64,000 nucleotides of DNA from Botryllus schlosseri (taxonomy: Eukaryota). The position numbers were made by a program, and so were the translations under genes. The stretch covers positions 34,350,001 to 34,414,000 of the forward strand of contig CM119372.1 of NCBI GenBank assembly GCA_051294905.1, read 5' to 3'. The notes beneath the pieces are model-generated. The model was not told the DNA's origin and searched no databases. It saw only the letters and a list, made by a program, of their open reading frames with translations. Below are positions 1,061-64,000 of this stretch, piece by piece (the stretch's first letter is position 1; each line of letters opens with the position of its first letter).

Positions 1061-1092
1061 ATAACGTCAAGCCATCTATCTTCTATCTAGCA

Positions 1093-2013: not shown

Positions 2014-2205
2014 CAGGGGCGGCCAACCCGTGGTCCGCGAGGAGGTTTTGAGTGGCCCGCGAGATAATTCTCGAAATTATTTATAATATCAAAAAATAAA
2101 TTATCCAGTTAATGTATTGTGAATTTGCATGGCCGAACAAAAATTTGATTAGCCTGACTGCGAAATTTGGTATGTTGATGACTAAAATATCAGTTCCGAC
2201 GCATT
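2014..2205 (-). mobile_element. Truncated copy of the MITE family at 16560-17277 and 36264-36952
   Basis: CAGGGGCGGCCAACCCGTGG...GAGTGGCCCGCGAG matches the reverse complement of about 17090-17277; no matching second end with TSD found. Confidence 0.7.
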
Positions 2206-3134
2206 GGCGTAGCCAGGGGCCAGCTACATTTTTCTTAGATATTCGTATACGACCATAACGTAGAATATTTCGTGGCAGAATTATGTGAATATATACTTTT
2301 CTCAGCAGTTCGCGCGATTTTCTTGTCCCTCGATTTCTTACTTATAGTATTAGTACCCCCCCTGAAAATTGAAAATTAAAAATACGCCCGATTTATAGAA
2401 TTGAGTCTGAATATATTCGCAATTATAAGAGAACGTGACGTTCAACAAGCGACTTCGCGTCTGCACTCGCAAAACGATCGGTGGGTTGAAACCGTTGCCC
2501 ATAATGATAGACGCATCATCACCGAAAATCTTCGATATTCATATGTCCAAGCGCCGAATAATCCTGTCCTTCCAAAATGAGCCCAGTGATATACAGAGAC
2601 GACCCACATTATTACATGCAAGTGACATTACTGTTGACCGAGTTCATTCATTGTCTTCGAAAATATTTCGCGCTTCGCGTGGTTAGGAAATAGATGACCA
2701 TTGCCCACTGACTCTTCATGACATAATTGCTATCGATTTTTATATGTAGTACTACAAATCTTGTTTTTACCGTTACCTAGTTCGGTTCGCTCTCATCGTA
2801 CGACTTAACGAACATGAGCAACATTCAAGTGACCCGCGTAATGGTTCGTACATCTCATGTGGGACTTCCGCCAAAAAGGTTGTCCCCCTGATATAAGGCA
2901 AATATCGTACCTTCAAGTTACTTTTAGGCGTGTCCATCGGACCAATGTAATTGGAGCAGTTCGAAAAGAAATTCTGCATAACGTCGGTTAATCACAAAGA
3001 AAAGCAGACCTGACGACGCCTGTAGGACAATGCAGAGACATTGTCTTGCTGATCAAAAGCGCGAAAAACTTTCTTGCAAGTGACATTCCCAAATATAAAT
3101 TCAACGAACAAACTCAGCTATCCATAGTCCAGTT

Positions 3135-26700: not shown

Positions 26701-29700
26701 CTCTGCAAATTGTTTCGATTTATTCTGCCCGTTTAATTTAAGATAAGGAAGCCCATTTCACTCAATGTATCGATGCCTACGGTACTCTACAACATTTTCT
26801 GATTAATTCTCCCTATGTTAATTTACCATAAGAAACACAATTTTACTCCTAAAGTCCGAAATACTTGTTCGCTTGAGCTAACCCGCAGCGCCTGGAGTGG
26901 AATTTTATAGTTCTTGTAAAAAGTTGTTTGTACACAATATATGTTTAAGGTAGGTCCTACACATTCATGATTTCGTCCGAGTTTGTATTTTAGTAGTATA
27001 TACTAATTTACGATACCGCATTTGTAATTTGTGCAAGAGTTGTATGCGCACAATATATGTTTATCATAAGTCCTACACATTCATGATTTCGTCCTAGCTT
27101 GAGTTTTAGAAAATATTATACCGACATCGCGACATCTTTCAAAAACAAAACCGTGGTCAATGCTTAAGAGACCATTTTCGCTATTTTTCATCGCCATAAG
27201 TCATTCTGGACCGCGAAAACGCTAACAGTTTCAGCTTTAAATAAAATTCGGAATATTAACTAATCGAAAAATTCGGTGACCACCTAATGAGTGCAAGCGC
27301 GAGTTCGCAAGTGGCAAATAAGTCAGATCGCTCGAAATAATAGTCCCGAGTTGCGTAAAGCTAATGTTCTCCCCGTAGCTGAGATCAAGGTTTGCAATTT
27401 CGCCTATGGGAATGAGGTATTAGAAAATACCAATTCGAGAGGTTCTCTACTAGATTAGTGCCTAGCTTTCTCCATCGCCAATACCTGATGCTGTCAGACA
27501 AGTTTATGAAACTGACATCTGTCATCCAGAGCAATGAAAAAAGTACATTCCAAAATTTCTTATCACTAAATTTCTACTAAAGTACAGGAAGTGCAGATCT
27601 CCGACAAGTAAAAAAGTAAGTATTAAAGGTATAGTTTGCCAGATAACTGAAAATAATAAAAAATAAAATTAAAACATTAAAAAGCGCGAAAAATTACATT
27701 TTATCCCGGAACGCAACAAGAAAAATCGTATGACTTTTGTAAAGTAGATAGAAAACTACACTATTCCGATGCACTAAAGACTTTTACACTCCGGATTTTG
27801 TATAGTATATACTAATTTTACATTGCGGGGTATTCAGTAAACTTTAATCCAGTGATCCTCCGTCTATTTTCAATCACGGCCCTCTTATTAGTCTAGGCTT
27901 CGAACCCCACATCCAGTACGTTTTATGGGGATTAATATTTTTAGACTCAAATACTTTTTCAATGTACTAAAGTCTTACAGTACCGATTTTGTAGAGTAGA
28001 TAGAAAACTACCTTTTGAGTCGATAGCGAAGTTCTTGTACATTTTGGAGTACTCAGGTATCGGTTTTGCCTTGGTAGCAATATACTCAATCAAGTGATTA
28101 TCTATTTACAGCGCAACCACTTCTATTTCAAAGTTTTCGGTTTTCAGACAAACTATACCTTCAATACTTACTGATTTACTCGTTCGGAAATCATCACTTC
28201 TTGCACTTTACCAAAAATTTACTGATACTAAAATGTTAAAATGTACTTTTTTCAATGCCCTCGATGAGCAGCGCCAGTTTCAACTATATCCTATCATGCA
28301 TTTCGCGCTGCAGAATGACTTATCGCAACGAAAAATAGCAAAAATACATCGAGAATCTGCAAACTCTCACTGCGAAATAGTTGAGTTGTACGAATTATCC
28401 TTCAAAGTGAGCTTACATATTGGATATTATCAAAACCGTCTCGATAGCGAAATAATTGTACATTTGGAGTACTCAAGTATAGGTTTCGCCTGCTTGCGCT
28501 ATACATAATCAAGTGATTATCTATTTAGACTTCATCTACTTCTATTTCTATTTCAGAGTTTTCAGTTTTCAGACAAATAATACCTTCAATACTTACTTTT
28601 TTACTCGCCCGGAAATCAGCACTTCATGTACTTCAGAAGATATTTACTGGTAATAGAATGTTGAAATGTACTTTTCCATTGGCCTTGATGAGCGGGCCCA
28701 GTTTCATTTATATTCTACAATGCATTTTCGCACTTCAGAATGACTTATCGCAATGAAAAATAGCACAAATACATCGAGAATTTGCGAACTCTCACTATAC
28801 GATAATTGAGTTTTACAAATTACCCTTCAAAGTGAACCTACATGTTGGGTATTATCCAAAACCTCGTAGAATTTCGCTCCGAGCGACAAATCCTTTGAAT
28901 TAAGGTGGAAGTACCTATTTCCGACCAAGTAAAACGTCAGTATTCCAGGTCTATTTCTGCTTAATTCTGAAACTATAATGGATTTGAAGCAGTACAATAT
29001 CATAAACACTTGAGAGTATTTGGTGCATGTAGGCAAAAAACGTACTTGAGTACTCGGAAGAATTCCATACTTACTTGTTTAGCCGCTCGGACATCGTCAC
29101 TTCTTGTACTTTACTAGAAATTTACTGCTGATAAATGAGTAATCGACTTTACCCGACATTCGCTTACTATGAAACTGAAGAATGAATAGACGCGTTTTCA
29201 AACTATAAAATGATATAATCTCTACAAAATGTTTTTGATATCAAGATAACTTTTTTATATGAATGGTCACGTATCCTAATATTCAAATAACCCAACACAG
29301 ACCTAGTACTTACAGGAATATCGTAGTTCTTGCAAAAAAGTTGTATGTGCACAATATATGTAAGGTAAGTCCTACTTATTCATGATTTCGTCCAAGTTTG
29401 TATTTTAGAAAATATTATACAGCAATTTACTTTACTAACGAGAAGTGTCGAGTTATCGAATGATTTTCCCTTGCGTCAAAACAAATAGTATGTGGAACTA
29501 TATTTCTAACGTTCCTAACCCTTTTGCACACCAGTGGTCAATCACACAAGCAACAAGTTTCGAGTATCGAGTTATTGAATAACGTGAAAGTGTTTTTCCA
29601 GTGTCGATTCGTTGTGATGATTAAAGCGTATATTGTAATACCACGAAGTGAGGCTTCGAAACTATATCGTCAGTTCTCCAGGAGCAAATATCGTGTTCTA

Positions 29701-32700
29701 CAAGTGTTAAGTTGTTGTATTATGTAACTAGTAATTGGTGCACTAAGCTCAGGATCGAACTAACTTGTGTTAACTTGCGTTATTATGTACCTAGTAATTG
29801 GTGCGAGTAATCCCGCAACTGCTGCTGTTCAATGCCTTTACCGCGTTCTTACCAAGCACCTAGACAGCTCCAAGCGCAGATAATGTAAGTTTGTATGTAT
29901 GAATGATGGGTCTTATGGTGCTTGATGATAGAAGCTGGTCTTTATTCTATATTCCGAAATAATCAAGTTGGTGGTTTTACCAGCACCTCGCCACATAGAA
30001 ACTTTAGTAGAATCACTTATAACTCTCACGTTCACTCAAGTAAATCTAATTTGATACATCGAGTACTGAAACTTAATTTTCCAGCAGTGTGATAAACGCC
30101 GTCAGATGGTACTCAGCATCGCGCAATTCCGCTCGAATACAAGTAAATGTACAGATTTCAAAGTAAGTAAGTAAGTATGTGACTAACTGGTTATGTTTGT
30201 AGACTATATCTCCACTTCTATCGTTCAGAGATGTTGAGCAGAGAAGTACAAGGGTTTCTTCAAAGTACTCAAGTGGTTTTTTTTGCCTACATGCACCAAC
30301 TACTCAAGTGTTTATGATATAGGCCTGTTTCAAATTCAAGACAGTTTCAGTATTAAACAAAAATGGACCTTGAATACTAACTTTTACAATGTGAAATTTT
30401 ATATGCATAAACGAAGAAACGTCACTTTTACAATGGTTCGGTATGATTTCTATATTATTCCACTCTCGTTATTGGACTGCGGTGTGACGCCGAGCTATAT
30501 CTCGATGCCTAGGCTTCCGCATTTATTTTTTTCGATTTATTCGGCCCTATGTAGATTTAACATAAGAAAGGTTATTTTACTCATAAAATTCGGAATACGT
30601 ATTTGCTCGAGTTAAAGCCATAACACTTGGAGTGAAATTTTACGTGGTTTTCGCTGATATCCAACTGGGCTAATTTCCAAATGTAATTTGAAAAACTCAA
30701 ATATCGCATAGTAGGACTTCCCAAATTTTCAGTACATTTTTGTTAATCTGCAGTGCGAAAATGCATCGTAGGATGTAGATGAAACTGACACCGTTCACCA
30801 AGACCACTAGACCACCGAAAAAAGTACATTTCAACATTTTAGTAGCAGTAAATTCCTAGTAAAGTACAAGAAGTGATGATTTCCGAGTGAGTTAAAAAGT
30901 AAGTATTGAAGGTATAGTTTGCTCGACCACCGAAAACTCTAAAATAGAAGTAGATGCAGTGTAAATAGTTAATATCTTGATTAAGTATAGCGCAAGCAGG
31001 CCGAACCTATACTTGAGTACTCCAAAATGTACAAGTACTTCGCTATGGACACCCTCCACGTAAAACGTGACTAGGTTTTAGACTACTTTATCGGTACTTG
31101 GTAGTTTCAGTTTTAGATAAAATTTGAAAAAAAAAACTAGCTCATTCACCCACTTGGCAATCTCTTCTTTAACCTTCACTTGAGTGCAGCAAGTAAATCT
31201 CATTTATTATTAATTCTACATGTACACTCGACCATATTTTATGACTTACATAATTAATTTTCACTATATTTGAAGTCAAGTCTGTCAAATAGCAGTATAT
31301 GTTACGATGAGCTTATTTTCGTTCTGTTTGATCATTCTGACTAACGATATTCATTAGGCGAGCTCTCCAGTGATAGTCTTAGGACTTGGAACAGTGTTAT
31401 ATGACATCATAGCGATACGAAGTTACGACAGTTTATAATTAGCTACCTTACGAAACCAAATTTCGCCTAAATATACATAATAGAATATCTATCGAATATA
31501 GTCTTGTATAGACATCATAGTTTTACATAAAAATACTTGGTGTCGTTGATTTGCACTTATTTGCGGTATGTTTAATTAATTCATGAGCCTTCAAAATGCA
31601 GTAAGCCGGGCGATGGGTATTCGTTGAGTTAAACATAAAAAAATATTCCCGCGCTCCAGGTTTTAGGGTTAGGAAAAAGTAGGTTTAGGAGAGCGCGGGA
31701 ATATTCTTAAACATGTTTGTTTTAAATTGATTTTTGTTTTAAATGCAACCCGATTCGCAACCCACTTAAAATGAATAATGACTACACAAATACCTTCGAA
31801 TTTCGAAAAACTTAAGTTGTCGTGGTACTGGGGATGTTTGGCCGACTCCTAAGACAATGTCAATCCTTTAGGTAAGTGGTTCCCGATCTTTTTCGACTCA
31901 TCGCATCCCTATCAAGCTCGACACAAATTTCTGCTTCCCCCCTTCCATATTTACGGACCCGTAAACGAGGACATATAAACGGAAAATTTATTCACCTAAC
32001 TCTGATCGCTGCTGAATGAACTAAAAAAGGTCATTTTCCTAGTCGGTGCTCGGGAAACCGGTTTCCGCGTCCAGCTGCCGTTGAGTTGACCTTTTTCAGT
32101 CAACTTTCGCGTCATATGCAGAATAAGCCGTCTTCACATGCGTTTTTCGTTGTGTTAATTAAATATATATCATTGGACGTTCTCACATTTTCGCCCCCTG
32201 TTGCCCGCAGTCGCCCCCTTTGGAATTTTATCCCCCTTGTTTCTCAAAATCGCCCACTGGGGAGCGATATCGCCCACATTGGGAACCACTGATGCAAACA
32301 TACCTACTAGCTACTTATTACGTTAAAAAATCCAGAATGTAACCGGTAAGTATTTTTACAGAAGAAAATGGTAGATATATATAGAAGAGGAGTAGGCTGG
32401 AAAAATCGCCACTTAAGTATGTACTGCATGTAGGTAAAATATACTTTGATACTCAGACAAACTGGAGGTACATCGTTTCTGACCACATCTGAAACTAATC
32501 TACGAGACGAAACTTACTTTTGCTTTGGTCGGGGTGAACTTGGTAATGACAATAGGAAATTTCATAGCGACAAGGCGGATGGTGCAGCATGCCAAGATAT
32601 GATGAGTAGTGCATGTTTCGGTCAGCCCAGTTAGCGAATATGAGAGCTAAAGCGAAAATTATATGTTACAAACGAGAAACACGATGCAATAGCGTCAGGA

Positions 32701-35700
32701 TAGCATGAACTACATTGCTTCATAACAAGAATCAATATCCGCCGCCATGTTTGAATGATTCAGAAACACGATTGTACATTAAAATCTACGACTACTCATG
32801 TCCAAAAACATGCGAAAGAAACATACCAGACGATATATGAGATGAGTATATAGGCTATATAGTCAGCATATACCGCGTTCATAATAAAATCTAACGTTTT
32901 GTTCTCTGTGGGTCCATCGCATAATGAAGAGTCAAAATACTATACCGAAAAAATACATAAATGATAAATAGATACGCTTGATGACCATGGGAAATGCACA
33001 AAAATGCGATCGCTTTTATATGTATACGTTACCGTCTCTTACAATTCATCAAACTTAACGAGATATGCAAGTTTAATGTATAAATTCTATTTATACCTTG
33101 CATATAGCCAATGGTAGATTAAATACGCGCAGCCCATAGGTTTTCCTGTACACCACCACCACGCTATTTACGGATGAGAGAATGTCTCCCGCGCAAAGAC
33201 TCACTAACAAGAAGTTGAATGCAGATCTGTAGAAAAGGGTGAAAATGTTGTACGTTGTCAGCAGGGCTTTGGAGCCTGAGCCGGAACCCGGAGCCGGAGC
33301 CCCGGAGCCGTGCATTTTCACCGGAGCTGGAGTCGGAGCCGGAGCTCTACATAAAATTTATCCGGAGTCGAAGCTGGAGCCCGTTATTTGAGGAGTAGCT
33401 CCGGCTCCGACGTATTTCATAAGATGCTATTATATATGCAACAACCACAACTGCTGATTTGTCATAATTGAACAGCAGGCCTGAATTTTAATGCTGTGCA
33501 CAGCAACGGCATAGATAGAGTAAAGTGCGTTCTAGTGCAACTATGATGTTATCGACAATTGACAAGTATTCATTATGACGTCACAAGCCGGCACGGCGGC
33601 AGCTATATCTTCTTTGCTACATCGGATGTTACTGACGGTTGACAGACTCTAGATCAGTGGTTCCCAACCTTTTTCGGTGGCAGGGCCAAATTTAGAATTT
33701 CAAAGTACGGCCGGGGCCGCACGAATGCCAAGGCAATGTAAGGAACCCAAAATAGTCACCAAAATATGAAAATTGGCATTGTTCCGATCATTCGCTTGAC
33801 GCCATTGGCCATTGTGTTGCCGCGTTCCCGTTGTTCAGAACAATCAACATTTGCTGGCTATTTCGGAGTAGTTTTATTGCCGATTCGTATTTTGGGAATC
33901 AGTGCGACACTTGCTTTCGATGAACACCGACATATCAAATTATTCGGACGCTTGGGTCGCGAGCTATTGGACTACCAATTATGCTGCTTTTTGCCGGCTA
34001 AGCAGTACGCATCTCGGCGTATTCAATCGTGAGTCACTTGTTGCACATCTATCCGTAAATTAGTTATCAATACCCAGGGCCGTAACAGCACTTCGTCAGC
34101 CCCCCCACAAAAAAGTTTCGCTTGGGCCCCCCATAGGGTGATAAACAGAACTTCGAAGCCCCCAGACCCCTCAGGCTAGATGGCTGTTGACCGCTATTTA
34201 TCATCTAAATCGGGTGTCCGTTTTAGGCAGCTTCTCTCGACTAATCGCTCAAAGCGCGAAAAATTTCTATGATTCATGATTGAATCGGTCAATATAATCG
34301 GGAATTGCATATATATATTGGTATCAATTTTTATCCTCTCTCTGCTCTAGGGCTGGGCAAAATCGAGCACCTGAGTGATTCGATTCTGAATCACGTAAAA
34401 TGCTTCGAGTCGAGTCGAGTAATCGAGTATCACTCATTATGACGTCATAGCATAATATTATTTGTCAAAGTTCAAATATGTACCTTTTAAGCGACCACAA
34501 AGAATATAATGCCTGTTATCCATCATATTAAGGATACTTTGTTATTTTTTTCGACCATACCGATTTCATTGCACTTGGTGGCAATGTTGTGGGATGATGA
34601 CGACTTCGGAAATGTGCTATTCCCAGTAACGTTCGTAGCTTTGCACTTCATGTTTCGCATGCTACGATACGGCCAATCAAGGTTTCAAGGCTTCAACAGT
34701 GAAATTAGCATAAACTCGTTGATCGTTGATAAACTCCTCGTTGATAAATCATCTTTCAGTGGTGAGGAGCGTATAATTTCAGTACTCGAAAAAATCGTCT
34801 TTTACTACTCGACTCGAATCATTAAAATTAATACTCGATTCAGATTCGAGTACTCGAATCATTGTGCCCAGCCCTACTCTGCTCACGTAATCAGATTGAC
34901 CGGTTGAGCCGAGTGAGTTGTGTTTGATAAGGTAGGACCACTTAATAATAATTAAACATCTTCGGGCGTATACCCGTTGGCAGGAACGAAACAGCACTTC
35001 GTCAGGCCCCCAAAAAACACTTAGGTCTTGAGCTCCCATATGGTGATAAACCGACCCCCCGTGCCGTTGTTCGCTTCTGCCACGGAATCAGGATCACCGT
35101 TTATTGAGCCAGCGTGGAGCGCGAAAATTTTCGATAATTCAAAATAAAATAGGTCAATAAGATCGGGAATTGCATGCTATCAATTACTTGTCCTCTCTGC
35201 TCACGTAATCAGATTTACCGGTAGAGCTGAGTGAGGTGTCTTGGAAACTGCAGGGCCCGTAAATAATAATTAAGCATATTCGGACGGGTTGGTACGACTT
35301 CGTTACACGATGTTATTTGTTATTTCGTGACCTCCAGTCTGCTATATCAAGAAATATAGAATCGACCAAACATACTAAACTAAAAGATGCACACGATTTC
35401 AAATTGGTAGTTCTTCACTGGCATATAATTCTTCCTGCGGGATGGTAGCCTATTTGTCTCGTGCCTATTTGTCTCTCTTGCCAAGACAGGAACATTCGGC
35501 GCCAGTCATTTAGGCGCCTATGGTCAATTAAACCTATATGTATTTTGAATATACATAACGAAGTTTTCGGTCAGCGTAAGGGCAGTCCTTTTCGGCCAAG
35601 GTTTTCTCGCTGCCGATCGTTCTGGCACACTTCTTGGAGTCGCATGTTACATGGCCTAAAACTTTATATGTCTTCGCGCGTCGTGGCGCGGTATTGGCCA

Positions 35701-44396: not shown

Positions 44397-44886
44397 TAGG
44401 GCTGGGGAAAATCGAGTACCTGAGTAATTCGATTCTGAATCACGTATTGCGCTTCGGGTCGAGTCGAGTAATCGAGTATCACTCATTATGACGTCACAAC
44501 AGATTGTACTATGTCAAAGTTCAATTATGTACCTTTTACGTTACCACGAAGAACATAATGCCTGTTATCCGTCACATTTAAGATACTTTGATAGTTTTTG
44601 ACCATACTGGTTTCATTGCACTTCTTGACAATGTTGTGGTATGATCATGATTTCGAAAAAGTGTTAAATCGAGGAACATTCGTAGCTTTGTGCTATGTCT
44701 GGTATATGCTGCGACACGGCAAATCAAGGTTTCCTCAGTGGAAAAGAGTATCAAAACTATATTACTCGTTAGAAAATTAATAATAATCTCAGTACTCAAA
44801 AAAATCGTTTTTTACTACTCGACTCGAATCATTAAAATTATTACTCGATTCAGATTCGAGTAATCGAATCATTGTGCCCAGCCCTA
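44397..44886. mobile_element. hAT MITE (family of 34348-34876)
   Basis: TIR TAGGGCTGGG / CCCAGCCCTA; perfect TSD GTCACGAG. Confidence 0.92.
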
Positions 44887-50395: not shown

Positions 50396-51519
50396 CTGGA
50401 ATTACAGCAAAATATGAACACAGATTATGGTACTGCAACATTAAAATTGAGATCCGTTTACACAGGTTTTATTGCAATAATGTGGCCGCTTTAATAATTT
50501 AATCCCCAATAATGAATAAGATCAGGAATACTGCTGCTCATTCAACTAAGACTATGACCGCGAACTAACGACTCATCAATTGTATATATATATGTTGCAC
50601 ATGGTGTGAAAAACTGTTGATTCGATTTTATTATTGAGCTGGCGGTACAGTGGCTCTATTGTCCGAACATTTCAGTTAACGTGAGCTTAGCATGCGCTCA
50701 CCACAAATACGACGCCTAATGCATGGCTTCGTTTAATATTCACCGAAGTTGACGTTGCCACGAAAAGCTTAAGAGTAGCTGAACTTAGCAACTGGTATCT
50801 ATGTTGCTAATAACGTAAAATCCCAGTGTCAATAAAGACATCATATAGTGCGTGTGCGTGCAAACAGTAACGTTCCCTGGCTGCTTTATAAAACCATAAG
50901 TTATGTGGTTGGGGACTCGTGACAAGTTGGCAAAGAGATATTGTATTTGTGAGTTACTAATGTGTAATGAGTTGTTGTTCCACAAATGCTATTTTATTGT
51001 GGGGTGTGGCAGTTACGAACCTGTCGTAAACCATCACGCAGGGGCATGCAGTTTGCGATGCAACAGCACAACCTACATTCCTAGCGAAATCAGTGAATAT
51101 TCACAACCAAAGGGTGGTACATGAAAACACAACCGAACTAAGAATTATATCGCGGTTGTAAACCCTATACCTGCCTATACGTCCATACCATCCTTAGTCT
51201 GTACATACAAGCATCATTGGGATAAAAATGTTGTATTTGGTTTATACCGTGGTGTATAAGGTATAGGTTCAGATATCGTACACCACAAGTATATTTTCAC
51301 ACCCTTATATCACTCGTGGTAGACGGGTGTGAATGTGAATACACACCGTTTTCGCTAAGAGTGTACATCAAGATTACGCCGACTATAATTGCAACGTATG
51401 ACACTCTCGAGGGATGATGTGTGTGAGTAATGAGTATCTATGAGAAGGCTACGGTGACATTGCTATCTCTAGTGCTAATACTTAGAAGAGACATGGTACC
51501 ATATTTATGTGTGCTGTAC

Positions 51520-53063
51520 CTTGGTAACGCCTTTAACGCCAGACGTTGGTAAATTTGGTTTTCGGCTTTGTGGTGTTAAATATTTTCCATGTGGGGTTGC
51601 GGAACTCGTCAACCTGAACACTTGGTTGTCCAGATGTCCACGCAAGGGTCACTCGATTTCTTTCCAGGCCAAGGTGATTGGGGCAGTTGGTTTTTGTCAG
51701 CGCCGGCAGTACGGTGGAGCAAAAACTTGACCGCACTTTCTCTTGACTTCTCGATCGGTGGTGAGGATTCTTGATGCGTGACCTTGGCCGCTGATATTTC
51801 CTCCTCGAACACAGAACTTTCAGAAGAGCTGTTACTACTTGAAGAGCTGCAACTTGAAGCGGTACTTGAAGTCGAGCTGCTGCTTGAATATCTATTCCTT
51901 CGGCGACTGTTTTCCTGGATGCGTTTCTGAGTTTGCAATCTGCAAGCAGAACAGTTGCTACTGTACGACGCCGCCGAGTCTGATGACGAGCCTTCGCTTT
52001 CCCCGCCGCTCCGCTCCGCCATATACCGCTCCACTAAGTTGAGATTGTTTGGAGTTGGTTTCTTGTTAGAGTCAGAATGATAATCTTGTAGATAGTCGAT
52101 ATCATCATCCGTAATTTAGATATGAGGCACTGGTGCAGCCACTGTTATATTCGCAGAGTCCCCAGTGCCCTTGTCATTTCCGTCGTGTGTTCCTTCAGTT
52201 TTATCGCCTTTTGTGTGGTGTCTCGTGTCTTCGGCTCATTCTTTCCGCGACATTGTTTTAGTTTCAGTGGCTGGTTCTTGTGGTATGGCGTTCTTCTTCG
52301 CATTCTCATTGTCGATTCCCCTTTGAGACTTTTGATCATTTGGATCCGCAGTAGATTCTGCTGGCGTTTTTGTATTATTAGGACCTGCGTCTGGCTTGTC
52401 CTCTTCGGCAATACGCCGTTCATTTATGGTGGGATTGGAAGCATCATTGATGTTTTCAAGATTATTATCAAGCGTTTTTCTATCCTCTTTTTTGATCGAG
52501 TTCCACGCATCCGCAGATTTATCAGAAGCAGATCGTTTATCCGCATCGAGATGGTGTACATCGTCGCTGTCATTTTTAATGTTTTGGTTTCGATCGGCTA
52601 CGTTTGCGCTAGAGACACTTTTCGTCATTGAATCCAGCAATTCTTGAGTGGAACTTCGGGGAGGTGATGAATTCCCGGGTGTCTGTCGGACTTTGTAACT
52701 TTGTGCTATTGAGTCTAGCAGTTTGTTAGAAGAGCTCACACCGTCAACACGGGCAGATGTATTTTTTATTTGTTCACATTCTTCTGGTGATGTCACTTTT
52801 GAAATTGTTTCATCAGCCAATTCAAGACTCAATTCAGATTCCTCTACTTTTTCAATGCTCTCGATGCGGTCGTTATTGGAAGGTACCTGCTCTACTTTCT
52901 CTGTTTTACATTCTCCCGTTTCGCTTACCATGACATCAACGTGGTTCACCTCATTTGAGACACGTAGGACCTCCTGTTGGTTGGAATCTGGCTGAACAAT
53001 GGGAGCATCCAAGGAAGCAATGCTTGAATAGTTGCCAACGTCGACATTGTCAGATGTGGGAAT
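51520..53063 (-). pseudogene. Large low-complexity (Ser/Asp/Glu-rich) exon of the C2-domain gene, disabled and truncated by a P element
   Basis: One frame runs from 53063 to about 51650 with two in-frame stops (TGA 52236-52238, TAA 52116-52118); an inferred 1-nt frameshift near 51648 then leads to ...GVTK|gtacag, in phase 0 with exon 50196-50395. Confidence 0.65.
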
Positions 53064-54323
53064 CAGGGATATCTAGACTAGGGATTGATAACTCTTTTTT
53101 GCCCATTACGTGATGAGGGCAAAATTACAATTATTTGTGAGGACTGCTGTCTGCACCTACGGACCCTTGTTGCCCACTATTACTCCTTCAAGTTGGATAA
53201 CAAATTGCTGATGACATCATTGTGGCCATGACGTCATAATGACCATGGCGTCATAGTGACTATGACGTCACAAATACTTTTCTTTATTATAATATTCGTG
53301 AAATGGCATGCAATTATTTAATTATAAACACAAGATAAACCGTTACAGGACATGCAATACCACCAATTTCGATTGTGTCAATTCTTGGAAGCCTTTGACG
53401 TAAGCTTACTAATTTTACGTAGTTTTTTGATGGCGGCTCAACAAGAGATGGTTGAATCGCTTAAGTTCATTCTTCGCAAAGCAATTGAAAGCTGTCTGGG
53501 CGATGGAGTTGAAGTTTGCATGACCAGATTGACAGCAGTTATTCAAAAGAGGGCGCATTAGGCTTGACAAATCAACCACCTCGTGAGTTGCCTCCGTGAA
53601 AACAAATCTTTGGTTTTGACAACAAAACAATTTTTGCTTCATGTCCATGGAATCACTTATGATGGTGAAATATTTGACAGCAAGCGTCGTTATTGCAAAG
53701 CATAACTCGGTAGGCTCAGCAAGGCCACCTCGATCAGCCATTTTGAATATTCTTTTGTATTCTTCTGGGAAGCAGAAATCCAAATCCGGAACGTCACGGT
53801 CGGTTATCAGCAATGTTTTGCAATCCATGCACTTTCGTCGCACAGAAATTGATCGGCCAATGCATCCACTGACAAAATATATCACACCGGCCTCTTCAGT
53901 TGTGATAAAATTCAGCGGTGCAGAGATAGGCAAAAGAAAGCTCACCAACCATTTGAAATCTTCTGCAGGTTGTAACACAGTTGCGGTCAAAGGTGGGTCT
54001 TGTTCATTCAAATTAAGAATACTCTTCAAACCATGCTGCTGAAGTAAGCTCAAGCAGCGGAACTTCTTTTCCGCAGGCAGTAACTGCTTCACGGACATGA
54101 AAAAGTTTGCCCCATTAACTTGCCGGTACATGCCAAATCTAGCCTCAATGGGATCTGACAAGACTTTTCCGGTGAGAAAATACTTCACGCCATGTTGCCG
54201 TTGAAGGTATCTTGACAGTGAAAGGACTGAGGTCATGGTTTGAATACAAGCCATAAAGGTCTCGTTAGTGAGTCCAGCTCTGTCAGATCTTTGCCACTCC
54301 ATGAATATAGTTATGGCTCTGTT
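53064..54323 (-). mobile_element. 3-prime part of a P-element/THAP9-like transposon (outer copy)
   Basis: Terminus CAGGGATATCTAGACTAGGG at 53064 abuts the host exon; contains the transposase C-terminal half. Confidence 0.8.
53415..54323 (-). pseudogene. P-element/THAP9-like transposase, C-terminal portion
   Basis: GLTNETF, YFLTGKVLSDPIEARFGMYRQVNGANF (catalytic E region), YFVSGCIGR..C..C, DRGGLAEP; open up to the junction at 54323. Confidence 0.9.
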
Positions 54324-54836
54324 CAGGGATATCTAGACTAGGGATTGATAACTCTTTTTTGCCCATTACGTGATGGTTTGCCTTCCCCAGTCAGACCCGC
54401 GAATGAGCCATTGGTGTACTCAATTCTTTGTGCTGTATACACCTCATCTATCATGAGGCATACGATACGATCGCGGGGTGTTAAGTCTTTTGATCGCTCT
54501 TTTAAATAATGCAAGTCTACTTTTCTTGGCTCCACAGTCATTTTCGATGATATTTGGCGAAGTCGACTCATCGAAGGCAAGGCAAAGAAATGCTTCAACT
54601 TTTTGTACAGTGCAGGACTAGTCAATCTCGACAGGAAAGCCAACATAAGAGTATCAGGTGAATATCGGCGACCTTTTGGGTGGATTTGAATCAATTTCAA
54701 CTGTTTCACAATAAATCCTAACAAAGGTGTCATGCAGCCATCCTGTAGAGCTGTGGACTCTGCCGTAGCGACGAGATAATCTTCCAGGATAGACACAGCA
54801 AGACTAATGCTGCTCGAGTCATCACTGCCACTATAC
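54324..54836 (-). mobile_element. Internally deleted P-like copy: transposase N-half fused to the 52-bp terminus
   Basis: KGRRYSPDT...SPALYKKLKHFFALPS...IVCLMIDEVYTAQRIEY (first catalytic D) joined at 54375/54376 to an exact copy of 53064-53115. Confidence 0.85.
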
Positions 54837-57800
54837 AGTAGTAGTAGTTATGATCGCTCGTGAGGTGGGTGGGGCTCTTATGGGCGGGGTGGCGAGCTAA
54901 CGAGAAACCGGGGGTGGCGAACTAACGTTTTCGTCTTATGGCGGGGGTGGCGAACTAACGTTTTCGTCTTATGGCGGGGGTGGCGAGCGGCTGGGAACCT
55001 GGGGTGGCAAGCGGCTCTTTCGTCTTATGGGCGGGGTGGCGAGCGGCTATTGTGTCTTATGGTCGCACGGTAACCCTTTTCAGCATAGGGATCGGTCGCA
55101 AGCGGCTCTTATGTCTTATCGCGGAGGTGGCATACGGCTATTGCGTCTTATGGCGGGGGTGGCATGCGGCTATTGTGTCTTATGGATGCGGTAGTGATTC
55201 GTACTTTCGTTTATAGACTGCGGGCGGCATGTCGTACTTTCAGCAAAAAAGGTGTGAAATAGTTTGCTAAGTCTAGGAATTACTCTCATGGTAATGTTTG
55301 AGTAATTAGATTACCCCAGAGCCGGCGTAGACGGTGATTCGAATATCAACAATAGTCGCGTTCGCAAACTAACACTTCAAAAAGGTGTGAAATATTGGTA
55401 AAATCCAGCGATCACTCACAAGATAATACCTAAGACATAACCATCGCTCGCGACTCGCTGTTACATACATGCCGATCGTTGACAATGTAATATTTTGGTA
55501 ATTAGTTTACCACAGAACCCGCGTAGACGGCGATACCAACAATAGCCGCGTTCACAAACTAACCCTTCAAAAAGGTGCGAAATAGGTTGCAAATCCCACG
55601 ATCACTCACGAGATAACACCTAAGACATAGCCAGCCCTCACCAACTTGTTGTTACATACATTCCAATCGCCACAATGTAATATTTTGATAATTGGTATGT
55701 CACAGGAACTGGATTTCACTGGTAAAATTTAATAAGTAACGGATAACAGAGCCGTCACAGACGATGATTCGAATACCGACAAATTCTCACTTATTTCTGA
55801 TCCCACCCTAATCCTTTGCGAAGTTGACGCTTATTCGAAAAGGTGTGAAATAATTGTAAAGCCCTACGTCGCTGACGGGATAATGCATCAGACATAGCGA
55901 TCTAGTTATAGCATGGGTCGGAATCCATTCGCGGGATGTACTAGGTAAATTGAGATAATCCGAAACGAAATATTTTGACTTTGGTGTAGTGTGAATTGAA
56001 ATAGGATTGACAAACATGGCTATCAACTTTCCCACAGTCCCAAATTGATATTATACACACATTGATTCGAAACAAGTAATGGAACATTGCAACTCTATTC
56101 GCGATCCGACTTTTCGTTTGTCAAAGCGACATTTTTAACATCTTACCATACTCAAAAGAATTATTTACAACATTAACAAGTGTTCAAAATCTAGTTTTCA
56201 CTTACTTGATTATACCACTGCAACTCACAAATTTGAATTAATTCATTCTGGTTGTATTCATATGATCGGTCTTTTTTATTCAATTGTAAAGGTCGTTACT
56301 ATTCTGAAGACAAAGTAAGCTATTTACTAATCGACACATAAATGACTTGACATAAACATATTATATTTTGAGTATACGAGATTTGAATGTCTGAACAATA
56401 ACTGAGAAATAATTTATCACAATAAAATACGTATATTACAGCGTAAAAGATGTTTGAATGTCAGCAACTCTGTACGGTCATAGTTACTACCACTAATTTA
56501 CCCGACCAACTCGTCATGATCATTCCTGAAATCAACACAAATATGACCACTGACTTGAGTTAACCACAAAACAGCATCAAGTTTTAAATCCACTTGTAGC
56601 TTACGGATTATTTGAATGCTGGTTATGTTTTGTTGTAATTGAGTTAACGGAAATAGTATTACGACTCGACATCTGACCATCTTACCATATTCAAAGAATC
56701 AACCACGAAAACATTGTCAAGTAAATCCGTTAACCGACCAACTCAACAGTATCAATATGAAAAACAGCCAAACATACACGAATCCATACAAGCACTAAAA
56801 CCTAAAATCCATAACAAGCCTGGTTGTATTCATATCCCTACATGTCTTTTTTATTCAACTTGAAAAGTCGTTACTATTCTGTAAGACAAAGAAATTACTA
56901 TGCGGTATATTTTGTAAGATAAAAGTAATTACTTCTCGGTGCCCGCGACTTGAGATTAACATAATATGTTTGAGTATGCGAGATTTGAATGTCTGCCCAA
57001 CATGTTGAGAATTCATTTCTTACAATCGAACGCAGGTGTTATATTGAAAATTATCATGATGTAAACATAAGGATTGACACATTGATTTGACATATGTAAT
57101 AGTTGATCATGACTTGACTATTAAATTATTTGCGTTAATTAGACCCGGCGTTGTGGTAAAGATTATTGTGACAGCAACAAACTTTTCAGTACCATTGTTA
57201 TTAACATATTGAGTTGTAAACTATGTGTGTCTAAAATGTTCTCGATTGGAAAATTATTCAGCCTTGGTACAAACCACGCAGAGTATTGTGGATATCAGGA
57301 AATATTTTACAAATGTAATTGTCTGCAGTAAACAAGACTAAAGATGAAACAACAATTTCCTTTGTTGAACAATAACCGGTGCAATACTTTATTGTCGGTG
57401 AGAATTGAAACACTTTCGCGCATTACCTGGTGTCAAGATATCACACTAGGTGAATTGACATACCACCATTTGATTAATGCTTAATCCGTTCGCATCATTT
57501 CACACTCACTTTGATCATTACAAAAGTAAATTGGAATATGTTTGCCAGGCACCACCTATTCAACTATACTTGAGTAATACAGAAACCTCTCAGCATTAAT
57601 AAAATCGAAATGTGCGCTACACTGAAATCTACAAAAATGAGTTTGTATTGCTGTTCGTAGTAGCGATATCGATTTGAACCTCCATCATCTAACCAAACTA
57701 CTGAGAGTCGTTGTCAATTTACATGACGTTCACTGATTACATACTAGAACTATTTGTGCAACGCACACGATCAGAGAAATTGGACATTTTTCCATTGCCA

Positions 57801-57840
57801 TTCGTCAAAGTAAATGTCGTCACAATAATCAGTCACTAAA
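54837..57840 (+). repeat. Left terminal inverted repeat, 3004 bp
   Basis: 55071-57840 is the reverse complement of 61231-64000; paired coordinates sum to 119071 throughout; six substitutions seen. Confidence 0.95.
54865..55185 (+). repeat. GC-rich subterminal minisatellite, unit about 30-34 bp
   Basis: About 9 imperfect copies of GTCTTATGGCGGGGGTGGCGAGCGGCT. Confidence 0.9.
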
Positions 57841-57846
57841 TCAATC

Positions 57847-58122
57847 ATGTCAATCCGTTTCACAATCCACCGTTCTTCAACTCCCCGCACCATAGTGTTA
57901 CGACACAGACAAGAAGCGTCGGTGGAAATAATAAAACACGGAAAGCACACTTTGGTGTTATTTGACATGGATTTTACACCCGACGAACCTTACATTCGAG
58001 CGATGCATTGGAATGGTGATTGTATTATTGATGTCCAGGGAAAACAAATGTATCGATTTATTGGTTTCGTACATATCCAACAAAAACCAGGGTATATGAT
58101 TGTGCACGGTTCGCATATTTGA
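57847..58122 (+). CDS. Hypothetical 91-aa protein at the start of the unique core
   Basis: Intact ATG-to-stop ORF starting 6 nt inside the TIR boundary; no family recognised. Confidence 0.3.
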   Translation: MSIRFTIHRSSTPRTIVLRHRQEASVEIIKHGKHTLVLFDMDFTPDEPYIRAMHWNGDCIIDVQGKQMYRFIGFVHIQQKPGYMIVHGSHI

Positions 58123-58934
58123 CTGTGAACGCTCTATTGATATATGTTGTACAGTTCACTTTCACCGTCGTGCGAATAACCCGTGTCACGGTTCCATGTT
58201 TGTGTGTCTGTATGTCATGCTTCAGATTGACTCAGAGTCATTGCAATGTGGCTTATTGGTATGACATTGTTATCAGGTGACATTCGATCTACATCAAAAC
58301 TACCGGCTATGATAATGTCTGTGGATCGATGTTTGTATACCAACACATTGCATGCAATGTCACACACCTCCATTTCCGCGTATACTGATGTGGGCAAACA
58401 AGCGCGACGTATGTCTGGATGGTATTTTTTCGTGGAAACACACGGTGTAACATGTTTACTTTGAATATTGTTCATTGGTTTATCGATTCAGAGTTGATAT
58501 CCGGCTCCAGTTACATACTTTATCAGGGTTTCCGATTTCAAACTGAATGTCGAGACATACATTGACCAATAAAGACACAATATAGTAAACATGCGGGAGG
58601 AAAACTCGATCTGGAGTTGTTATCGCGATGGGTGACATAAATCCAACCGTTTTCCGAATACCGTTATCCACATACCAACCATCGTCAAGGAGGTGTTTTA
58701 TTCAGACATTTTGACTCTGGAAAATCCAAAGCACGAACCCGGACATCACGGACATATCAGAAACCCCTTTATTCGCCAATTCCGAAAACATACATGTCGA
58801 TGTACAACAGCACATTGTTATTGTATGTGAGTAACCAATGATTTTGATGGGATGCATCAGAGCAAGTGAATATTTGATTACACAAATGTCAGTTTTCAAA
58901 ACGAAAATGGTATTGGTACTCAGGTAAATGATAG

Positions 58935-59298
58935 TTTTCCAAACGAAAAGGGTTTGTTGCCTGGGGAGAAAAGGGTTTGTTGCTCAGTGAAAATGGTTTG
59001 TTGCTCGGGGAAAAAATATATTTCCAAGTGAAAAAGGTTTGTTGCTCAGGGAAAAAATGTATTTCCAAGTGAAAATGGTTTGTTGCTCAGGGAAAAAATA
59101 TATTTCCAAGCGAAAAAGGTTTGTTACTCGGGGAAAAATATATTTCCAAGTGAAAAAGGTTTGTTGTTCAGGGAAAAAATATATTTCCAAGCGAAAAAGG
59201 TTTGTTACTCGGGGAAAAAATATATTTCCAAGTGAAAAACGTTTGTTGTTGAGGGAAAACATATATTTCCAAGTGAAAATGGTTTTGTTACTCGGGTA
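58935..59298. repeat. Tandem array, 40-41 bp unit, about 8 copies plus degenerate flanks
   Basis: G(T/C)GAAAA(A/T)GGTTTGTT(G/A)CTC(A/G)GGGAAAAAATATATTTCCAA repeated head to tail. Confidence 0.95.
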
Positions 59299-61230
59299 AC
59301 GCTAAACTCCCAAGGGAAAATGGTAATTGTACACAAGTAACGACTGACCTCCTGGTGAAAATGATATTTTTACTTGGGTAGGTATCGTATGTTCAGTGTC
59401 AGTGATGTTGTTAAACGTTGTTGCTTGACATCGGTATCCCGTTAGTGTATTATTATGAGTGTGAAAAGGATTTACACATCTTGTGCAGAGTATCAGAGTG
59501 TTGCGACAGTAAAGATATTGTTCGCGTGACGAACCAAGATCGTTGTTTAAATGTTAATGCATTTCGATTACCGAGTTGCTGTACAATAAAGATGAATCTA
59601 CATTAGACCGTGCTGTGTACTTCGATTGAAACCACATGTAAATCTATTCGCACAACTCGATGATGTTGATGTAGTGTTACTAAAATAAATTATTACCTAT
59701 TTACACAACATAAAAATAACAATTCATGTCGTAGTAAGTAAGCTTCTTGAACTCGTGCTTGATGAAAACGATTGGCGACAAGTATGCTTTTGTGTTTGAG
59801 TGAAAAATAATTATTTAGAGTAGTGACAGTTTGTGACCAACGAATGCAAATCGATCATGGTATTACAATATACGCTTTCGTCAACATAACGACTTGGTGC
59901 AGGAGAAACACTTTAACGTTTTTCAATAACCAGAATCTTGAAACATGTTGCTTGTGTGATTTACAGCTGGTGCACAAAGGTTAGCGACGTTTTTTAATAT
60001 AGTTCCACTTTCTAGTTGCTTTGATGTGAGGCTCGGTGCTTCTCGTTAGTAAAGTAAATTGTTTTGTGCGTTAGATTTGTGGTAAGTAAGTCGAATACAT
60101 ACTCTTTTGTGGAAGTAACTGTATTGCTGCAATATCATTGGTAGGTCTCTGAAGCAGTCACCGTGGTTTTAATTTTGAAAGATGTCGCGATGTCGGTATA
60201 ATGTTTTCTAAAAGTCAAACTCGGACGGATATCACGGCTATGTAGGACTTACGATAAACATTATACTTATACAACTTTGTTACAAGAACTATGATATTTC
60301 TGTAAGTGCTATAGTCGTGTGTTGGATTATTTGAATATTTGGATACGTAACCATTCGTATGAAAAAGTTCTTGTGACATCAGAACAGTTTGCAGAGTCAA
60401 ACCAACCATTCAGTTTCGTAGTGTGAGGATATCGAGTAAAGTCGATTACTTTGTGTGATGTAAATATCCTTCGTACTTTTGTAAGAGTTGTGAGGATGAT
60501 CATTCGTATCCTATGAAGTAGCTAGTTGATACTACAAAATATTGAATGATCGCTAACACACTGAGTTCATAACCCAAGATAGTGAAAATTGTGTACTCTT
60601 AGACTAACATAATTCGTATCCAGCAAAACGATAGACACCAAAGGTTCGATGGAGTTTAAATCTAGATTGTATTAAGCGAAGTGGTGAGTATCTCCAGTAA
60701 TAAAGTCGAAACGACCAAAACAAATTTTCTGTGTCTTGTAAATAACTATTTGGTATGATATTACTTGAGTGTGTGACAATTCGTATCCGTCGAGGTTGAA
60801 TGTTTAGCCATATCGAAATGAATCCAGATCACATGAATTATACATTAATCACAATAGAATCGACGAGAATGTTAACCACGTAGAGTGTGTTTGTTTAAAA
60901 GTTATCTCCAATACGGTTACTTCGATCGGTATTAATTCCATGTCATACAAAAACATGTAACCTTTGTACAGTTTCGTAGTACGGGAATATCGAGTGAAGT
61001 TGATTATTTTTGTGTGACGAAAATATCTTGTATTGATATTGGACACTGGTTTCGTTACCCAAGTGAGTGAAAATTGTTCTTGGCTGGACAGATATGATTA
61101 GTATTTAGAAAAAACGACTCACACCGATTAAGCGACGCTGTTTCCTATCCAATGACTGAGTGAAATTTCTCAGGGGTTTGATTTACCGAGTTAATTGTCG
61201 GCGATTCAATCACATACAAGTATATGGTCT

Positions 61231-64000
61231 TTTAGTGACTGATTATTGTGACGACATTTACTTTGACGAATGGCAATGGAAAAATGTCCAATTTCTCTGA
61301 TCGTGTGCGTTGCACAAATAGTTCTAGTATGTAATCAGTGAACGTCATGTAAATTGACAACGACTCTCAGTAGTTTGGTTAGATGATGGAGGTTCAAATC
61401 GATATCGCTACTACGAACAGCAATACAAACTCATTTTTGTAGATTTCAGTGTAGCGCACATTTCGATTTTATTAATGCTGAGAGGTTTCTGTATTACTCA
61501 AGTATAGTTGAATAGGTGGTGCCTGGCAAACATATTCCAATTTACTTTTGTAATGATCAAAGTGAGTGTGAAATGATGCGAACGGATTAAGCATTAATCA
61601 AATGGTGGTATGTCAATTCACCTAGTGTGATATCTTGACACCAGGTAATGCGCGAAAGTGTTTCAATTCTCACCGACAATAAAGTATTGCACCGGTTATT
61701 GTTCAACAAAGGAAATTGTTGTTTCATCTTTAGTCTTGTTTACTGCAGACAATTACATTTGTAAAATATTTCCTGATATCCACAATACTCTGCGTGGTTT
61801 GTACCAAGGCTGAATAATTTTCCAATCGAGAACATTTTAGACACACATAGTTTACAACTCAATATGTTAATAACAATGGTACTGAAAAGTTTGTTGCTGT
61901 CACAATAATCTTTACCACAACGCCGGGTCTAATTAACGCAAATAATTTAATAGTCAAGTCATGATCAACTATTACATATGTCAAATCAATGTGTCAATCC
62001 TTATGTTTACATCATGATAATTTTCAATATAACACCTGCGTTCGATTGTAAGAAATGAATTCTCAACATGTTGGGCAGACATTCAAATCTCGCATACTCA
62101 AACATATTATGTTAATCTCAAGTCGCGGGCACCGAGAAGTAATTACTTTTATCTTACAAAATATACCGCATAGTAATTTCTTTGTCTTACAGAATAGTAA
62201 CGACTTTTCAAGTTGAATAAAAAAGACGTGTAGGGATATGAATACAACCAGGCTTGTTATGGATTTTAGGTTTTAGTGCTTGTATGGATTCGTGTATGTT
62301 TGGCTGTTTTTCATATTGATACTGTTGAGTTGGTCGGTTAACGGATTTACTTGACAATGTTTTCGTGGTTGATTCTTTGAATATGGTAAGATGGTCAGAT
62401 GTCGAGTCGTATTACTATTTCCGTTAACTCAATTACAACAAAACATAACCAGCATTCAAATAATCCGTAAGCTACAAGTGGATTTAAAACTTGATGCTGT
62501 TTTGTGGTTAACTCAAGTCAGTGGTCATATTTGTGTTGATTTCAGGAATGATCATGACGAGTTGGTCGGGTAAATTAGTGGTAGTAACTATGACCGTGCA
62601 GAGTTGCTGACATTCAAACATCTTTTACGCTGTAATATACGTATTTTATTGTGATAAATTATTTCTCAGTTATTGTTCAGACATTCAAATCTCGTATACT
62701 CAAAATATAATATGTTTATGTCAAGTCATTTATGTGTCGATTAGTAAATAGCTTACTTTGTCTTCAGAATAGTAACGACCTTTACAATTGAATAAAAAAG
62801 ACCGATCATATGAATACAACCAGAATGAATTAATTCAAATTTGTGAGTTGCAGTGGTATAATCAAGTAAGTGAAAACTAGATTTTGAACACTTGTTAATG
62901 TTGTAAATAATTCTTTTGAGTATGGTAAGATGTTAAAAATGTCGCTTTGACAAACGAAAAGTCGGATCGCGAATAGAGTTGCAATGTTCCATTACTTGTT
63001 TCGAATCAATGTGTGTATAATATCAATATGGGACTGTGGGAAAGTTGATAGCCATGTTTGTCAATCCTATTTCAATTCACACTACACCAAAGTCAAAATA
63101 TTTCGTTTCGGATTATCTCAATTTACCTAGTACATCCCGCGAATGGATTCCGACCCATGCTATAACTAGATCGCTATGTCTGATGCATTATCCCGTCAGC
63201 GACGTAGGGCTTTACAATTATTTCACACCTTTTCGAATAAGCGTCAACTTCGCAAAGGATTAGGGTGGGATCAGAAATAAGTGAGAATTTGTCGGTATTC
63301 GAATCATCGTCTGTGACGGCTCTGTTATCCGTTACTTATTAAATTTTACCAGTGAAATCCAGTTCCTGTGACATACCAATTATCAAAATATTACATTGTG
63401 GCGATTGGAATGTATGTAACAACAAGTTGGTGAGGGCTGGCTATGTCTTAGGTGTTATCTCGTGAGTGATCGTGGGATTTGCAACCTATTTCGCACCTTT
63501 TTGAAGGGTTAGTTTGTGAACGCGGCTATTGTTGGTATCGCCGTCTACGCGGGTTCTGTGGTAAACTAATTACCAAAATATTACATTGTCAACGATCGGC
63601 ATGTATGTAACAGCGAGTCGCGAGCGATGGTTATGTCTTAGGTATTATCTTGTGAGTGATCACTGGATTTTACCAATATTTCACACCTTTTTGAAGTGTT
63701 AGTTTGCGAACGCGACTATTGTTGATATTCGAATCACCGTCTACGCCGGCTCTGGGGTAATCTAATTACTCAAACATTACCATGAGAGTAATTCCTAGAC
63801 TTAGCAAACTATTTCACACCTTTTTTGCTGAAAGTACGACATGCCGCCCGCAGTCTATAAACGAAATTACGAATCACTACCGCATCCATAAGACACAATA
63901 GCCGCATGCCACCCCCGCCATAAGACGCAATAGCCGTATGCCACCTCCGCGATAAGACATAAGAGCCGCTTGCGACCGATCCCTATGCTGAAAAGGGTTA
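61231..64000 (-). repeat. Right terminal inverted repeat (runs off the window)
   Basis: Mirror of 55071-57840; duplicated ORFs 55808-56035/63036-63263 and 56498-56680/62391-62573. Confidence 0.97.

Follow-up and report, generated by a model that had tools for sequence, protein, structure and literature searches.

A P-family transposon terminus within its own transposase gene in Botryllus schlosseri: possible templated filler at an internal deletion

How might the terminus of a transposon have come to lie inside the gene for its own transposase? This question is raised by a 64-kb stretch of the Botryllus schlosseri genome (the window, meaning the whole stretch of DNA analysed), in which a P-family element carries its 3′ tip twice. 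Direct comparison of the sequences bore out the exact 52-bp direct repeat described in an earlier note on this DNA: positions 53064–53115 are identical to positions 54324–54375, or 53 bp when the preceding T is included. No other exact direct repeat in the 64-kb window is as long as this 52-mer, whose opening 13 bases occur there at only two sites even when up to two mismatches are permitted. The note had also placed the second copy between an N-terminal and a C-terminal half of the transposase, and this was confirmed, the halves being collinear.

Judged by its sequence, the 52-mer is the genuine 3′ terminus of a multicopy P-family transposon, a relative of which (L007) has similar inverted repeats beginning CAGGG. 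The terminus visible here, the single end within the window, is identical at 16 of 24 bases to the 25-bp repeat found at both ends of L007, and by analogy with that relative the first ~24 bp of the 52-mer would be the terminal inverted repeat. Copy 1 (53064–53115, minus strand), assigned from the repeat match and its likeness to L007, is bordered by GTGGGAAT (53056–53063), a candidate target duplication whose 8-bp length is taken from the P-family rule. Among relatives, the flanks of L007 are mismatched (the contig ends 7 bases past the repeat), and none of 24 loci has a clean target duplication. An exact search of metagenome contigs with the 20-base terminus gave no matches. A hairpin with an 8-bp stem (53097–53124, plus strand) holds TGAGGGCA (53114–53121), a putative site recognised by motif match; at positions 51–58 from the end, it is the sole match to the THAP consensus TXXGGGX(A/T) in the first 150 bp. 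The 52-mer stops inside TGAGGGCA, so that copy 2 lacks a complete THAP-type motif, and the hairpin too is cut off there. The ends of L007 have similar AGGGC/AGGGT cores, and the strict THAP-type consensus is absent from them. Behind copy 1 lies the 3′ untranslated or subterminal region (53116–53414, minus strand), with AATAAA at ~53283–53288 and a 17-bp tandem repeat. Copy 2 (54324–54375, minus strand), identified by the repeat match and the contigs, replaces ~0.7–2 kb of missing transposase gene and adjoins GCTCTGTT (54316–54323), which is preceded by ATG and would be the inner target duplication if one element had inserted into another.

The C-half of the transposase (53415–54323, minus strand) contains the E531-equivalent SDPIE and the C-terminal domain, and the N-half (54376–54839, minus strand) contains a helix-turn-helix region and the D230-equivalent MIDEV, the THAP part lying beyond an inserted element. 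Over the stop-free stretches 54377–54835 and 53418–54323 (both minus strand), the N-half ends GLTGEGK in translation and the C-half opens NRAITIFMEW; they correspond to residues 172–286 (42% identity) and 539–830 (32% identity) of a full-length relative, P0003. The gap between them amounts to ~240 residues, among which are the second catalytic Asp and the GTP-binding domain. When the catalytic residues were located via another relative, P0251, onto the Drosophila transposase 6p5a, the D303 equivalent fell within the deletion. The catalytic and GTP-binding region, reported earlier as missing, has thus lost that domain and the D303 equivalent and has kept the other two catalytic residues. Both halves are free of stops, as had also been reported, a wording that concealed a C-terminal frameshift: the last ~12 codons of the C-half are unlike the tail of P0019, a relative with 79% identity, and near 53422–53450 the contigs carry 7-bp and 1-bp insertions relative to the window. 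The halves match full-length relatives with a TNP domain, which points to a P-type transposase of the TNP-like RNase H kind with D, D and E as catalytic residues. Against PF21787 the N-half scored 17.6 bits, under the 24.6 cut-off, and the C-half matched no Pfam family and no PDB chain. A THAP domain was found in P0251 and P0023, and the GTP-binding insertion domain PF21788, deleted in the window copy, was found near the cut-off in P0003 and P0023. The many near homologues of the C-half that are ~330-aa ORFs raised the alternative of a separate gene, which we rejected because L005, L021 and L022 each have it as the final exon of a single gene with all parts in one orientation. Deleted, frameshifted and interrupted, this P copy is dead.

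The element lies against a low-complexity, decayed coding-type frame (51450–53063, minus strand), recognised from stop counts: 4 in-frame stops in 538 codons, where the other frames have 15–50. What the earlier note called a host exon is therefore a coding-like frame and a candidate exon only; the adjacency stands, and the frame has four stops and no homologue was found for it. Residues 300–520 had no homologue among proteins of 295–942 residues, the protein atlas gave no match, and the family scan returned one sub-threshold, low-complexity match to SR-25. Contigs from 4 of 15 runs were aligned to 51300–54905, with depth not to be read as copy number; all figures from them rest on listings that cover 24 of 229 loose ends and 32 of 1415 pieces, along with 40 of 471 substitutions and 12 of 69 indels. 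Among the contigs listed, two types (records 4, 5 and 19) continue for 249–264 unlike letters past 53058–53063, and these, X1 record 5 included, are probably empty host sites.

Contigs of other copies show the reading frame running on past both breaks of the N-half. The X2 loose end before 54374 hand-translates as AKTVLAF, and because this matches SKTVLCF in P0003, positions 54374–54375 are common to the intact frame and the tip, a microhomology of 2 bp. Just before the C-half start, Leu is found in 45 and Phe or Tyr in 46 of the 49 near homologues alignable there (25 of 74 are unalignable), and the tip's first triplet reads Leu in frame at the position preceding that start. A multicopy X7 contig (record 30) reaches 54327 in a full-length alignment, which takes it four bases into the tip; of its 4 differences, 2 are known to fall in the body. 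The left junction probably has microhomology at its first 0–4 bases, but CTG makes up only 8 of the 56 Leu codons of the two halves, and three matching bases of four would suit record 30 equally well. Among the 32 of 1415 pieces listed no contig bridges either junction, an absence that proves nothing because so few of the pieces, and only 24 of 229 loose ends, are listed. In the contigs listed the halves are about equally diverged from the majority (5/259 against 3/310 and 2/234), the window copy as a whole being 1–2% diverged. Other family copies with deletions appear in the X7 contigs, with joints at 53089–53171 and 53126–53298, some of them near the end.

The locus as a whole resembles commonplace transposon debris, and the available sequence does not separate repair copying from a second insertion as the source of the extra tip. 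We tentatively prefer, at a probability of roughly 0.45, a single P element in which templated filler, copied from its own tip, patched a deletion. A P-family element would first have inserted into the coding-type host frame; upon its excision, sister-chromatid gap repair copying from both ends would have been aborted, with loss of the middle. The observed deletion, collinear halves and 2-bp microhomology at the N-half break would then be completed by three further steps. Close to the tip, where the loop of the 8-bp hairpin lies, the N-half end may have used the 2-bp match to prime on the other nascent strand; ~50 bases might have been copied back to the terminus, where a single-stranded template would end at the staggered P-type cut; and release of the strand could have been followed by joining to the end of the C-half at a short shared CAG(G). 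The inverted-repeat element ending in AGTAGT would have entered the N-half as a separate event, and the resulting dead copy would have one left end.

One such repair event covers the collinear, non-overlapping and co-oriented halves, the filler and the junctions, and it suits the right-hand microhomology, the in-frame Leu, the extent of record 30, the lack of a THAP-type site in the 52-mer and the similar divergence of the halves. According to passages of the respective papers, gap repair that is interrupted, with ~2 nt of microhomology, gives rise to P deletions (PMC5991514), animal DNA transposons undergo template switching with fillers and microhomology of median 2 bp (PMC8277862), and the breaks left by P excision receive templated insertions (PMC2895639), although the inserts in the last of these passages are mostly short and local. 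The principal difficulty is that the first base of copy 2 is precisely nucleotide 1 of the terminus, as strand transfer by the transposase gives, whereas a random template would hardly ever start there, the staggered cut being our proposed reason for the exact stop. In addition, in Drosophila the 8-bp target is flanked by bases similar to the three that end the element, ATR...WAT (PMC2577343); ATG-GCTCTGTT-CAG fits this pattern, so that a CAG-like match on the left is partly expected under insertion.

The earlier note had proposed that the transposase inserted a second family copy at GCTCTGTT of the first, both having the same orientation, and we consider this unlikely. The second copy would have lost the stretch from base 52 to the N-half, and more probably once inserted than earlier, because a 52-bp end without a THAP-type site is unlikely to support movement: the sole match to such a subterminal transposase site is cut in copy 2, and a daughter deleted beforehand would probably be immobile. 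The exact terminus at the junction and the ATG...CAG flanks, which suit a palindromic target model, speak for such nesting, as does a multicopy family with other deleted copies, and local hopping is established in passages of PMC7776569. Nesting nevertheless takes two independent events whose breakpoints chance on collinear, non-overlapping halves, and the 64-kb window shows no second left end and no duplicated GCTCTGTT, the expected place for which begins near 64231, past the window. P-in-P insertions exist in Drosophila; a limited literature search found no direct precedent for one. Somewhat less likely again is a sister-chromatid hybrid-end insertion inside the element, in which pairing between the 3′ end of one sister and the other's 5′ end would give a truncated and a full copy in tandem with one left end, aborted repair later trimming the second copy to 52 bp. 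This mechanism is named for P elements in passages of PMC2775673, the product geometry being our extrapolation, and it would account for the exact terminus, the forced common orientation and the fit of ATG...CAG to the target; two events are again needed, and direct repeats of 1.26 kb with a break between them would be expected in many cases to collapse to one element. Because such an insertion followed by deletion also leaves one left end and no duplication of GCTCTGTT, the outcome that the earlier note would have read as patched filler cannot tell filler from hybrid-end insertion.

An error of assembly, or ectopic recombination among the scattered copies of the family, would explain why no listed contig bridges copy 2 and why the window's private variants are missing from the contigs listed. 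We think it improbable, and more so than either kind of insertion: contigs lose rare variants, only 32 of 1415 pieces are listed, the intact frame shares a clean 2-bp microhomology with the right junction, and X2 record 20 crosses from the host into the tip by 29 letters. That contig falls under the 31-letter bridging rule and has 4 unplaced differences, but may be a filled host junction. The recent P activity claimed earlier does not follow from the exact repeat, as at the 1–4% pairwise divergence that the contigs imply, 52 identical bases are expected 12–59% of the time, for which reason we rejected dating by the repeat; moreover, the copy is 1–2% diverged and C-terminally frameshifted.

How does this locus compare with known systems? 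With the P superfamily (Drosophila P, PDB 6p5a/6pe2; THAP9-like; PF05485, PF21787, PF21788) it shares an end starting CA, by analogy with L007 a short terminal repeat, and RNase H catalytic Asp and Glu positions corresponding to D230 and E531; THAP and TNP-like domains are found in full-length relatives, one of which matches 6p5a at E 2.2e-5, and several relatives have introns. From Drosophila P it is distant, its terminus being CAGGG where that of Drosophila P is CATG, and the closest relatives, all unnamed, are 49–79% identical over parts. The central deletion, 2-bp microhomology and probable templated filler recall the KP-type deletions and Pack-TIR gap filling in passages of PMC5991514 and PMC8277862, whereas a filler that is the element's own tip, starting exactly at the terminus, is not described in those passages. 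Hybrid element insertion, or alternative transposition, would likewise bring a true end and an internal site together in direct orientation, but here it is hypothetical and also requires a later deletion. All three models draw on known mechanisms of P-element decay or misjoining and have little wider import; the locus serves as a worked example for separating templated filler from transposase joining. A transposase-made P self-insertion outside insects, nested or hybrid-end, with target flanks mirroring the element's own terminal bases, is unlikely; if true, the Drosophila rule by which the ends restore the target motif would also hold in a distant P family, and the locus would be a true nest of three levels, the inner one a non-coding Polinton satellite with 3-kb arms.

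The inverted-repeat element breaks the P frame at 54839/54840, as the loose ends indicate, and in uninterrupted copies the P frame continues behind 54839 (contig loose end). An AGTAGT-ended inverted-repeat insertion is present as previously noted; the name Polinton-like rests on its ends, and no ORF of the part within the window exceeds 105 aa. If it was mobilised as a Polinton, TACAGT (54834–54839) would be a 6-bp target duplication, and on the far flank TACAGT followed by TTCCTGCA is expected, with the P frame resuming. Its non-coding, AGTAGT-ended left arm (54840–57840, 3.0 kb), the end of which is highly repeated in the genome, is followed by a 3.39-kb spacer with a 41-bp tandem array (57841–61230) and a right arm (61231–64000) that runs past the window end, the mirror end being expected near 64231. 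A search of viral contigs with the 21-base element end gave no matches, and integrase, protein-primed polymerase and capsid-type genes were not seen, the arm and spacer holding no ORF above 105 aa. The inserted 9.4-kb unit is at most a non-autonomous Polinton derivative. Polinton ends start AG and can read AGTAGT, with which the end of this element agrees, although literature searches turned up no passage on this feature. The recording of an unnamed multicopy P family and of this large non-coding inverted-repeat family in B. schlosseri should help repeat annotation. Long terminal inverted repeats of the Polinton/Maverick kind are present, the right arm differing from the left by 6 mismatches in the 2770 bp comparable, and the 3.0-kb arms of this unit, which has no visible coding capacity, contrast with the 584 bp of a lizard example (PMC3014272).

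The copy with a duplicated tip is a real feature: the exact 52-bp direct repeat reported in the earlier note was confirmed at 53064-53115 and 54324-54375, a preceding T common to both copies extends it to 53 bp, and the 52-mer pair is the longest exact direct repeat of the 64-kb window. The two minus-strand transposase frames likewise match their earlier description. The N-half (54376-54839) and the C-half (53415-54323), which flank the second copy, align with residues 172-286 (42%) and 539-830 (32%) of an 856-aa relative, P0003, and with residues 298-439 and 680-966 of a 989-aa relative, P0251; therefore, about 240 residues are missing between them. The corresponding gap spans 720-1985 bp in five related loci, varying with introns.

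THAP and TNP-like RNase H domains are found in P0251 and in another relative, P0023, and a GTP-binding domain, with scores near the cut-off, in P0003 and P0023. P0251 aligns with the Drosophila P transposase 6p5a (E 2.2e-5), and a hand count along this alignment places the equivalents of D230 and E531, of the catalytic triad given in PMC7776569, in the N-half and C-half, respectively, and that of D303 in the gap. A related locus, L007, carries an apparently whole P-family element (11-3886) with 25-bp inverted repeats beginning CAGGGAT. Because the P end in the window is identical to this repeat at 16 of 24 bases, the 52-mer is, as judged from sequence comparison, the genuine 3′ terminus of a P-family element. 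No 8-bp target duplication was demonstrable among 24 related loci. The subterminal AGGGC/AGGGT cores of L007 are asymmetric, lying 64 and 54 positions from the two ends.

Contigs from 4 of the 15 listed read runs were placed on 51300-54905 for comparison. In run X1, depth stood at 7462 where the inserted element begins, against 126-473 across the P sequence and 31-82 across the host frame; depth does not equal copy number, but both the P family and the inserted-element family are clearly repeated in the genome. Further internal deletion or replacement variants of the P family occur in the contigs (53089-53298, 53543-53897, 54246-54300 and 54624-54799), one of them a 96-bp skip with 33 letters between its sides. 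At the N-half junction, a loose end before 54374 (run X2) translates by hand as AKTVLAF, the continuation expected after GKP, so that 54374-54375 constitute a 2-bp microhomology. The start of the C-half could be aligned in 49 of 74 near homologues, where the two residues just before it include Leu in 45 and Phe or Tyr in 46; the first three bases of the tip encode Leu in frame at the matching position. An ungapped alignment of a 188-nt contig of run X7 (record 30, depth 260) extends to 54327 and takes in four bases of the tip; the contig differs from the window at 4 positions, 2 of them placed in the body. This suggests that part of CAGG is common to the tip and intact copies. As CTG makes up just 8 of the 56 Leu codons in the halves, we infer a match of 0-4 bases, plus the common T.

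How might the second tip copy have arisen? We tentatively favour templated filler from the aborted gap repair of one element (probability about 0.45), because this single event explains the collinearity, the orientation and the microhomology. In the literature, P elements are documented to undergo interrupted gap repair that uses microhomology of ~2 nt (PMC5991514), templated insertions are described at P breaks (PMC2895639), and template switching with fillers is described for animal DNA transposons (PMC8277862). The inner end of the filler falls within the loop of an 8-bp hairpin (z -2.6; equalled by 4 of 200 shuffled sequences). The exact stop at nucleotide 1 would be accounted for if copying had run out of single-stranded template at a staggered cut, which is 17 nt in Drosophila (PMC7776569).

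The triple nest proposed in the earlier note is supported at two of its three levels; the middle one, insertion of a second P copy into the first, is unproven; we consider it unlikely, and a repair product of a single element more likely. The palindromic target model (PMC2577343) agrees with the exact terminus at the junction and with the ATG/8/CAG context, but the host site, GAT/GTGGGAAT, departs from that model, so such a fit is not required. A daughter already deleted before it moved is unlikely: TGAGGGCA, a candidate site and the sole match in the first 150 bp of the P end to the THAP consensus (a second-hand citation in PMC3464256), is cut at base 52. Slightly less probable still is a hybrid-end insertion between sister chromatids followed by deletion, a mechanism named in PMC2775673, the geometry here being our own reconstruction. 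Under this model a single left end without GCTCTGTT duplication is expected, an outcome that had been taken as proof of filler and is thus not exclusive to it. Artefact or ectopic recombination seems improbable. Every candidate mechanism is already known.

Recent P activity, earlier deduced from the exact repeat, does not follow from it: at a pairwise divergence of 1-4%, a stretch of 52 bases would be free of differences in 12-59% of cases, and the repeat therefore says little about recency or parent-daughter identity. Compared with the window, the majority contigs among those listed show 5 differences in 259 bases, 3 in 310 and 2 in 234, and listed contigs hold 7-bp and 1-bp insertions near 53422-53450. 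The last ~12 codons of the window copy diverge from the tail of a 79%-identical relative, P0019. Some contigs pass 53058-53063 and then depart from the window sequence, which suggests that there are empty insertion sites and that the P insertion is probably not fixed.

Because the P frame goes on in loose ends behind 54839 (X1, X2) and loose ends before 54840 bear varied flanks (X7 and another run, X11), the AGTAGT-ended element starts at 54840 and splits the transposase. This non-coding element of ~9.4 kb (54840-64000 in the window) has 3.0-kb arms that are 99.8% alike (6 differences in 2770 positions) and a 3.39-kb spacer, with no ORF >105 aa. Its far end should lie near 64231, beyond the window; scans of metagenome and viral contigs returned nothing on that far side. 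The Polinton label is based on the long arms and the AG-type end; the AGTAGT end, which we presume to be a Polinton feature, was not found as such in the literature searched. Polinton features include a 6-bp target duplication and long repeats (PMC3014272). The arms contain 32/33-bp and 190-bp tandem units and the spacer a 41-bp array; the element's end is very highly repeated, with the variants AGTAGTTAG and AGTAGTATAGTA among loose ends. At 28065-31026 lies a further inverted-repeat structure, which contains tandem units of 425 bp, and repeats at 26908-29646 resemble the spacer at 59855-60384, hinting at an older relative.

The host frame (51450-53063, minus strand) has 4 stops in 538 codons, compared with 15-50 for the remaining five frames. 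It is a serine/acid-rich sequence of coding type that has decayed, and searches found no homologue. A second version in the contigs, ~14% diverged (64 differences in 460 bases), suggests a duplicated gene or pseudogene. Elsewhere in the window, a related pair of ~0.5-kb elements (34348-34886 and 44397-44886) have TAGGGCTGGG as inverted ends and 8-bp direct repeats on their flanks (CTCTGCTC and GTCACGAG, respectively); they are presumably hAT-type miniature elements. A ~1.2-kb sequence occurs as diverged inverted copies, ~80% alike, at 3135-4332 and 22877-24182, 19-20 kb apart.
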